A stretch of 64,000 bases of DNA from Escherichia phage LF82-4, in the sequence record PV660448; one strand, written 5' to 3'. A program made the translations under genes and the position numbers. Positions 42,300 to 42,755 of the stretch are shown here, piece after piece. The notes below the pieces were generated by a model. That model saw only the letters and a program-made list of their open reading frames with translations, was not told the origin of the DNA and did not search any database. How positions within the stretch are numbered: the stretch's first letter is position 1; every line of letters begins with the position of its first letter.

Positions 42300-42755
42300 T
42301 TATTTTAGATCTTCGGCCCAATCTAGTTTTAAGGGTTCTTTGTATTCACGGTCGAGAATAACCGGAATAGCTACATCACCACTGAATGATAGTTGGCCAA
42401 CGTTATATGATAACGTTATATGTGGAGTGTAGTCGTCGAAGTCATGAGTAGCACCTAAAGCCCGTGCATACTGATGACGACATCTAAGATATTCGGAATC
42501 AAGAACTAAAACCAGTACAGCGCCGTCGTCAGTTTTCCATACCTCAAAGTGTCCTGATTCGGCAATAGAATAACTACCACTAGATGTAGTATATGGTATG
42601 TTTACACGTGAATAGCAAATTGTCGAATGAAGCTTTTCACGTGGTACTGGATTAGGAATTCTTAATTTACGCTGGAGATCTTCCAGCGCATCAAGTGTTA
42701 ATTCTGAAAACTTAGCTGCGACGTAGAGGCCTTGTGAAAAGTCCTCAAATTTCAT
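42300..42755 (-). CDS. 57B: 57B-like protein, putative 2H phosphoesterase (Acb1-like)
   Basis: 151 aa; two H-x-T motifs (LHSTI and PHITL) about 85 residues apart as in 2H phosphoesterases; adjacent to 57A as T4 57B. Confidence 0.55.

Follow-up and report, generated by a model that had tools for sequence, protein, structure and literature searches.

The gene 57B product of bacteriophage T4 is the founding member of the Acb1 family of anti-CBASS proteins. It was found by activity-guided fractionation as an enzyme that degrades 3'3'-cGAMP and was named Acb1 (PMC9117128). The T4 enzyme cuts 3'3'-cGAMP, cUA, cAAA and cAAG but not cGG, 3'2'-cGAMP or cA4, and an H44A/H113A mutant is inactive (PMC9117128). 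In vitro, T4 Acb1 blocks the effectors Cap5, Cap4 and CapV (PMC9117128). A T4 Δacb1 phage suffers a CBASS-dependent plating defect of >300-fold and grows normally where CBASS is lacking (PMC9117128). In an independent transposon screen, 57B was conditionally essential on a CBASS-expressing host.

The residues of T4 Acb1 that act on the ligand have been described. H44, T46, H113 and T115 form an HxT/HxT tetrad, the aromatic residues Y12, W74, F107 and W147 stack on the bases, and E141 contacts the adenine N6 (PMC9117128). In the enzymes of Erwinia phage FBB1 and T4, a C-terminal lid closes over the ligand and W147 participates in stacking (PMC9117128).

Here, we compare these systems with a locus of Escherichia phage LF82-4 (PV660448). 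The sequence analysed, hereafter the window, is a 64,000-nt stretch in which an earlier note, made from the letters and open reading frames, had suggested an Acb1-type counter-defence enzyme. On the homology presented below, we put the probability that the gene is the orthologue of T4 57B and encodes an anti-CBASS Acb1 with the same function as the T4 protein at about 0.95.

Identification of acb1 and its product

The gene occupies positions 42300..42755 on the minus strand and reads from an ATG over 151 codons to a TAA stop. It is the 151-aa ORF adjoining 57A that the earlier note had singled out: it is present at exactly these coordinates, and the product of its upstream neighbour is gp57A. 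According to the ORF check and to homology, we annotated it acb1, the gene 57B orthologue, encoding a 2H phosphoesterase. The motifs LHSTI and PHITL, which had drawn attention to the ORF, are both found in its translation. The first contains the predicted catalytic HxT, H43-S-T45, encoded at 42621..42629 (minus strand) and equivalent to T4 H44/T46. The second contains H112-I-T114, encoded at 42414..42422 (minus strand) and equivalent to T4 H113/T115. Both assignments draw on the sequence, on the invariant H and T columns of the alignment described below and on the T4 data (PMC9117128). The separation of about 85 residues that had been reported for the pair needs correction: H43 and H112 are 69 residues apart.

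Both HxT motifs have hydrophobic flanks (L-H-S-T-I and P-H-I-T-L), in agreement with the 2H superfamily pattern. When the protein was shuffled with its composition preserved, 14% of the shuffles had two or more H-x-[TS] motifs and 0.3% had two or more in the hydrophobic context, H-h-[TS]-h. Because a bare pair that arises in 14% of shuffles is weak evidence, the interpretation was tested by homology, and it is by homology, not by motif count, that the case for Acb1 is made.

The profile search that the earlier note had suggested yielded a match to Pfam PF23474 (Anti-CBASS protein Acb1) with an E-value of 1.8e-58 and a score of 196.8 bits, against a cut-off of 27. The match covered the full profile, positions 1-144 of 144, and residues 8-149 of the protein. 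In a search of the PDB, the best match was Acb1 of FBB1 (7T26/7T27; E=7.9e-59, residues 9-148, with one 1-residue indel), and identity to the crystallized FBB1 chain was 64%. With T4 gp57B (NP_049750.1, from NC_000866), the window protein shares 85% identity and 92% similarity in an ungapped alignment. An NCBIfam search with the same protein returned no matching model. The matches to the Pfam family, the crystal structures and gp57B are all strong, bearing out the reading of the ORF as an Acb1-type 2H phosphoesterase. The accompanying statement that T4 57B is Acb1 is backed by the biochemistry and genetics of Hobbs et al. 2022 (PMC9117128). Overall, by every criterion that can be applied to a sequence, the window protein is a member of the Acb1 family and the orthologue of its founding member.

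A single-sequence AlphaFold2 prediction gave a model that was unusable (pLDDT 39, pTM 0.30). The fold was therefore taken from homology to the crystal structure, and the end-to-end homology to the 7T26 chain argues for a compact 2H fold.

Conservation of functional residues

To relate the window protein to the T4 enzyme, we mapped the nine named T4 residues, each of which falls at position n-1: Y11, H43, T45, W73, F106, H112, T114, E140 and W146. The two proteins differ at 23 of 151 positions, mostly by conservative changes. All 23 substitutions lie outside the residues named as catalytic or ligand-contacting, of which all nine (9/9) are identical to those of T4. The C-terminal lid segment, residues 144-151, which was located by alignment with T4 and is encoded at 42303..42326 (minus strand), includes W146 (T4 W147). 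It reads LDWAEDLK versus LDWADDLK in T4, an identity of seven residues in eight, and we infer that the lid of the window protein would likewise close over the ligand.

To extend the comparison, we aligned the window protein with those of T4, FBB1, Acinetobacter phage Acj9, Shigella phage SSG23, Aeromonas phage 50AhydR13PP, Cronobacter phage LPCS28, Vibrio phages phi-ST2 and phiKT1024, and Klebsiella phage KP27. Across these ten sequences, which represent seven genera and extend down to 28% identity, Y11, H43, T45, H112, T114 and E140 were invariant, and positions 73 and 106 were always aromatic. The homologue of KP27, a Slopekvirus, is encoded at 1459..2082 of the compared segment and has 207 residues, with a C-terminal extension of ~55 residues past the Acb1 domain. 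It has a lysyl residue in place of the lid tryptophan and could represent a structurally variant Acb1.

Predicted function and mechanism

In LF82-4, acb1 is intact, its product belongs to the Acb1 family and keeps the named functional residues, its position is syntenic with T4 and, as described below, it is under purifying selection. The chemistry, substrate range and anti-CBASS phenotype of the protein would be those established for T4 and FBB1 Acb1. Most likely, the enzyme is predicted to cleave 3'3'-cGAMP, cUA, cAAA and related CBASS signals 3' of adenosine in a metal-independent 2H reaction.

In the proposed mechanism, acb1 would probably be transcribed together with 57A in middle or late infection. 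Acb1 would bind the cyclic di- and trinucleotides produced by the CBASS CD-NTases of the host in a U-shaped pocket, in which the bases would be stacked on Y11, W73, F106 and W146 and adenine would be read via E140. The C-terminal lid would shut over the ligand, with the adenosine rotated. The H43/T45/H112/T114 tetrad would provide metal-independent acid-base catalysis, with the 2'-OH of the adenosine attacking the 3'-5' phosphodiester bond. Ring opening would occur in two steps, via a 2',3'-cyclic phosphate intermediate, to give a linear product bearing a 3'-phosphate, such as GpAp. Once the signal is gone, the CBASS effectors (nucleases, phospholipases and NADases) would be inactive, early cell death would be averted and the phage could complete its cycle.

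An Acb1-family enzyme might instead have a natural target other than CBASS, whether the cAAA of type III CRISPR systems, other signals or a shifted range. Panoptes, a system that relies on 2',3'-c-di-AMP, is perturbed when Acb1 is over-expressed, and the 23 substitutions relative to T4 leave room for divergence. However, deletion of acb1 from T4 has no effect on Panoptes defence, the substitutions spare every named ligand-contact and catalytic residue, and the only phenotypes demonstrated for the orthologue depend on CBASS. We consider a target outside CBASS unlikely.

Selection and distribution

The nucleotide sequences of acb1 and T4 57B are 75% identical. Synonymous divergence between the two is near saturation (dS ~1.85) and non-synonymous divergence is low (dN 0.13). 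The resulting dN/dS of 0.07 indicates strong purifying selection on acb1.

In a tblastn search with the window protein, 1,469 phage records matched, of which 1,461 covered at least 80% of the protein. According to identity, 118 records carry the window allele (at least 99%) and 568 carry the T4-type allele (80-90%). Identical proteins are encoded by Shigella phage SSE1 and Escherichia phage Mizar (XXL68586.1). Among carriers of the window allele, Shf125875, SSE1, ATK47, SHSML-52-1 and p000v are not named in those parts of the supplements of Hobbs et al. that were available.

The proteins of the window allele class and of the T4 type differ by 15%, and synonymous changes between the two are nearly saturated. 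On these grounds, the class might be thought a natural specificity variant whose shifted substrate range is kept by different host defences. Such a shift could consist of the gain of cGG, 3'2'-cGAMP or the 2',3'-c-di-AMP of Panoptes, or of the loss of a substrate. We regard this as improbable, and the preferred reading is still an Acb1 with the function of the T4 enzyme.

Database labels and the RNA ligase reading

The labels given to the Acb1 family vary from record to record and include 'RNA ligase', 'hypothetical protein' and 'anti-CBASS Acb1-like protein'. The first of these is the name of PHROG 755, which the window protein matches with an E-value of 5.2e-65, and it stands in many phage records, including those of LF82-1 and RefSeq T4. 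Taken at face value, the label would describe a LigT-like 2'-5' RNA ligase, or an RNA-repair cyclic phosphodiesterase, acting on RNA ends. The two HxT motifs, being common to the whole 2H superfamily, are compatible with such an enzyme, and the protein has a weak match to the LigT-type Pfam family 2_5_RNA_ligase2 (PF13563; E=0.012). The latter match, however, is confined to residues 69-131 and scores 16.1 bits, below the cut-off of 27, versus 196.8 bits for the Acb1 profile. Moreover, the PHROG name is automatic, with no assay behind it, whereas the T4 orthologue was identified by its cGAMP-degrading activity and is dispensable for normal growth where CBASS is lacking. Conservation also extends to every residue stacking on the two bases of a cyclic dinucleotide and to the lid that shuts over the ligand. 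An enzyme acting on RNA ends is thus very improbable, and the 'RNA ligase' label is most likely a mis-annotation that reflects only 2H superfamily membership.

A chance ORF or decaying pseudogene with a coincidental HxT pair, for which the 14% of shuffles containing a bare pair might speak, is effectively excluded by the Pfam match, the spread of tblastn matches at high coverage, the location of the motifs in invariant columns, the intact full-length frame and a dN/dS of 0.07 versus T4 despite near-saturated synonymous sites.

The identical protein of Mizar is already annotated 'anti-CBASS Acb1-like protein' in GenBank. Because the window protein is the orthologue of the founding Acb1 and an identical protein is deposited under the Acb1 name, the finding is already known: Acb1 has been a well-characterized anti-CBASS nuclease since 2022 and occurs in most T4-like phages. 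The practical value of the result lies in annotation, with little new biology, as most public records, including those of LF82-1 and RefSeq T4, hide a counter-defence gene under 'RNA ligase' or 'hypothetical protein'.

Gene neighbourhood and transcription

The neighbours of acb1 are encoded on the same, minus, strand. Upstream are the genes for gp3, involved in tail completion (43778..44368), gp1, a dNMP kinase (42990..43724; Pfam DNMK, E=1.4e-96), and gp57A, the tail-fibre assembly chaperone (42755..42985; Pfam GP57, E=2.4e-24; phrog_1002). Downstream is ipI, encoding IPI (41935..42222; Pfam IPI_T4, E=1.4e-50). T4 has the same order, 3 - 1 - 57A - 57B - ipI, and the earlier note's placement of the ORF at the 57B position therefore holds. 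The order 3 - 1 - 57A - 57B is also found in T4, Acj9, SSG23, 50AhydR13PP, phi-ST2 and KP27, distant genera of the Straboviridae included.

The TAA stop of 57A and the ATG of acb1 overlap by one base (TAATG). This overlap suggests that the two genes are probably co-transcribed and translationally coupled. A candidate promoter for 57A-acb1 is the octamer TATAAATA, which corresponds to the T4 late-promoter consensus and lies within gene 1 at 43340..43347 (minus strand), ~355 nt upstream of 57A. The identical octamer occurs at the aligned T4 position (5006-5013 of the compared T4 segment). The window contains seven such octamers versus 8.5 expected, a number not above chance, so the candidate is a lead only, assigned solely by its positional conservation with T4. 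This lead fits the expression of T4 57B, which is predominantly middle/late, and the appearance of cGAMP-degrading activity ~15 min into T4 infection (PMC9117128). Scans for sigma-70 promoters and terminators around acb1 were no richer than those of shuffled sequence.

The 77-nt spacer between acb1 and ipI (42223..42299, minus strand) contains an imperfect hairpin, GGATGATGG-TGTGTTA-CTATCATCC, a possible marker of the 3' end of the transcript of 57A and acb1. Also in this spacer are a sigma-70-like element with an extended TG (TTTACA-17-TACTAT) and a late-promoter sequence close to consensus, TATAAAATA. Probably, ipI has its own promoters.

Mosaic structure of the window and other genes

Positions 41500..44500 of the window are 100% identical to Escherichia phage LF82-1 and sibling isolates, and identity to LF82-1 is 99.85% over 40659..50500. 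Upstream of 40659, identity is only 93-96% and the window has extra DNA. When the phage collection was searched with 38800..41400, no record exceeded 94.5%. Judged by this upstream drop in identity and by a segB-like insertion that is absent from LF82-1, the window is a mosaic Tequatrovirus whose closest relative is LF82-1.

The insertion, a segment of ~700 bp, carries a gene at 39781..40449 (minus strand) for a GIY-YIG homing endonuclease of 222 aa that is 76% identical to T4 SegB and adjoins a tRNA gene. The tRNA gene, at 40491..40562 (minus strand), is the only one in the 64-kb window, versus eight in the T4 cluster. ARAGORN and Rfam agree on it, with the anticodon CAT, and it was called as tRNA-Met. 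It takes the place of T4 tRNA-Ile and can be aligned with it; in some stems, both strands carry changes. The tRNA-Arg annotated in LF82-1 was not found in the window by ARAGORN; the segment 39434..39787 is instead occupied by an ORF of 114 aa that matched no Pfam family.

Between ipI and a trna.4-like ORF, where T4 has no gene, lies a gene at 41563..41871 (minus strand) for an internal head protein of 102 aa (phrog_2667, E=4.2e-42), annotated 'internal head protein 7' in Shf125875. Its N-terminus, MKTYKEFI, is that of IPI, which is consistent with a common prohead-targeting and cleavage leader. The site resembles the hypervariable internal-protein locus already known.

At 28395..28661 (minus strand), the window encodes an 88-aa homologue of Acb2/Vs.4, a cyclic-oligonucleotide sponge (Pfam PF24729, Acb2_Tad1_hairpin, E=4.4e-18; PDB 7UQ2, E=9.8e-31). 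The ORF list runs this frame up to a TTG at 28829, but it is a start at the 28661 ATG that gives the length annotated in LF82-1. With homologues of both Acb1 and Acb2/Vs.4 in the window, the phage carries both known anti-CBASS proteins of T4. It is therefore predicted to resist most CBASS systems that use 3'-5'-linked, adenine-containing signals. The LF82 phages are phage-therapy candidates against pathogenic E. coli, for which it is useful to know that Acb1 and Acb2 are both carried.

Comparison with known systems

The closest described system is T4 Acb1. At 85% identity without gaps, the two proteins have the same length but for one extra N-terminal methionine in the T4 annotation. Their genes share the position between 57A and ipI, and the tetrad, the stacking aromatics and the adenine-reading glutamate are identical. 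The loci differ in the overlap with 57A, which is 4 nt in T4 and the single nucleotide of TAATG in the window, and in the extra internal-head-protein gene that follows ipI in the window phage.

FBB1 Acb1, 64% identical over the crystallized chain, shares the 2H fold with its HxT/HxT active site, and its structures have been determined in the apo form (7T26) and with 3'3'-cGAMP (7T27). In FBB1, F and Y occupy the positions of W73 and F106 of the T4 and window proteins, such that both are aromatic in all three, and the loop following the W/F position has an indel of one residue.

LigT/2'-5' RNA ligase and other 2H proteins (PF13563) share with Acb1 the two H-x-T/S motifs, the superfamily fold and metal-independent 2',3'-cyclic-phosphate chemistry. 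By contrast, the window protein matches their profile below threshold, and cyclic di- and trinucleotides are accommodated in Acb1 by a U-shaped pocket, four aromatics for stacking and a closing lid.

Acb2/T4 Vs.4 (PDB 7UQ2), encoded in the same window, also removes CBASS signals. It is an unrelated protein, which sequesters the signal and does not cleave it (PMC10312549). Apyc1, an MBL-fold enzyme that cuts cCMP and cUMP, the poxvirus poxins and the AcrIII-1 ring nucleases are likewise viral destroyers of cyclic-nucleotide immune signals, but they differ from Acb1 in having distinct folds and different substrates.
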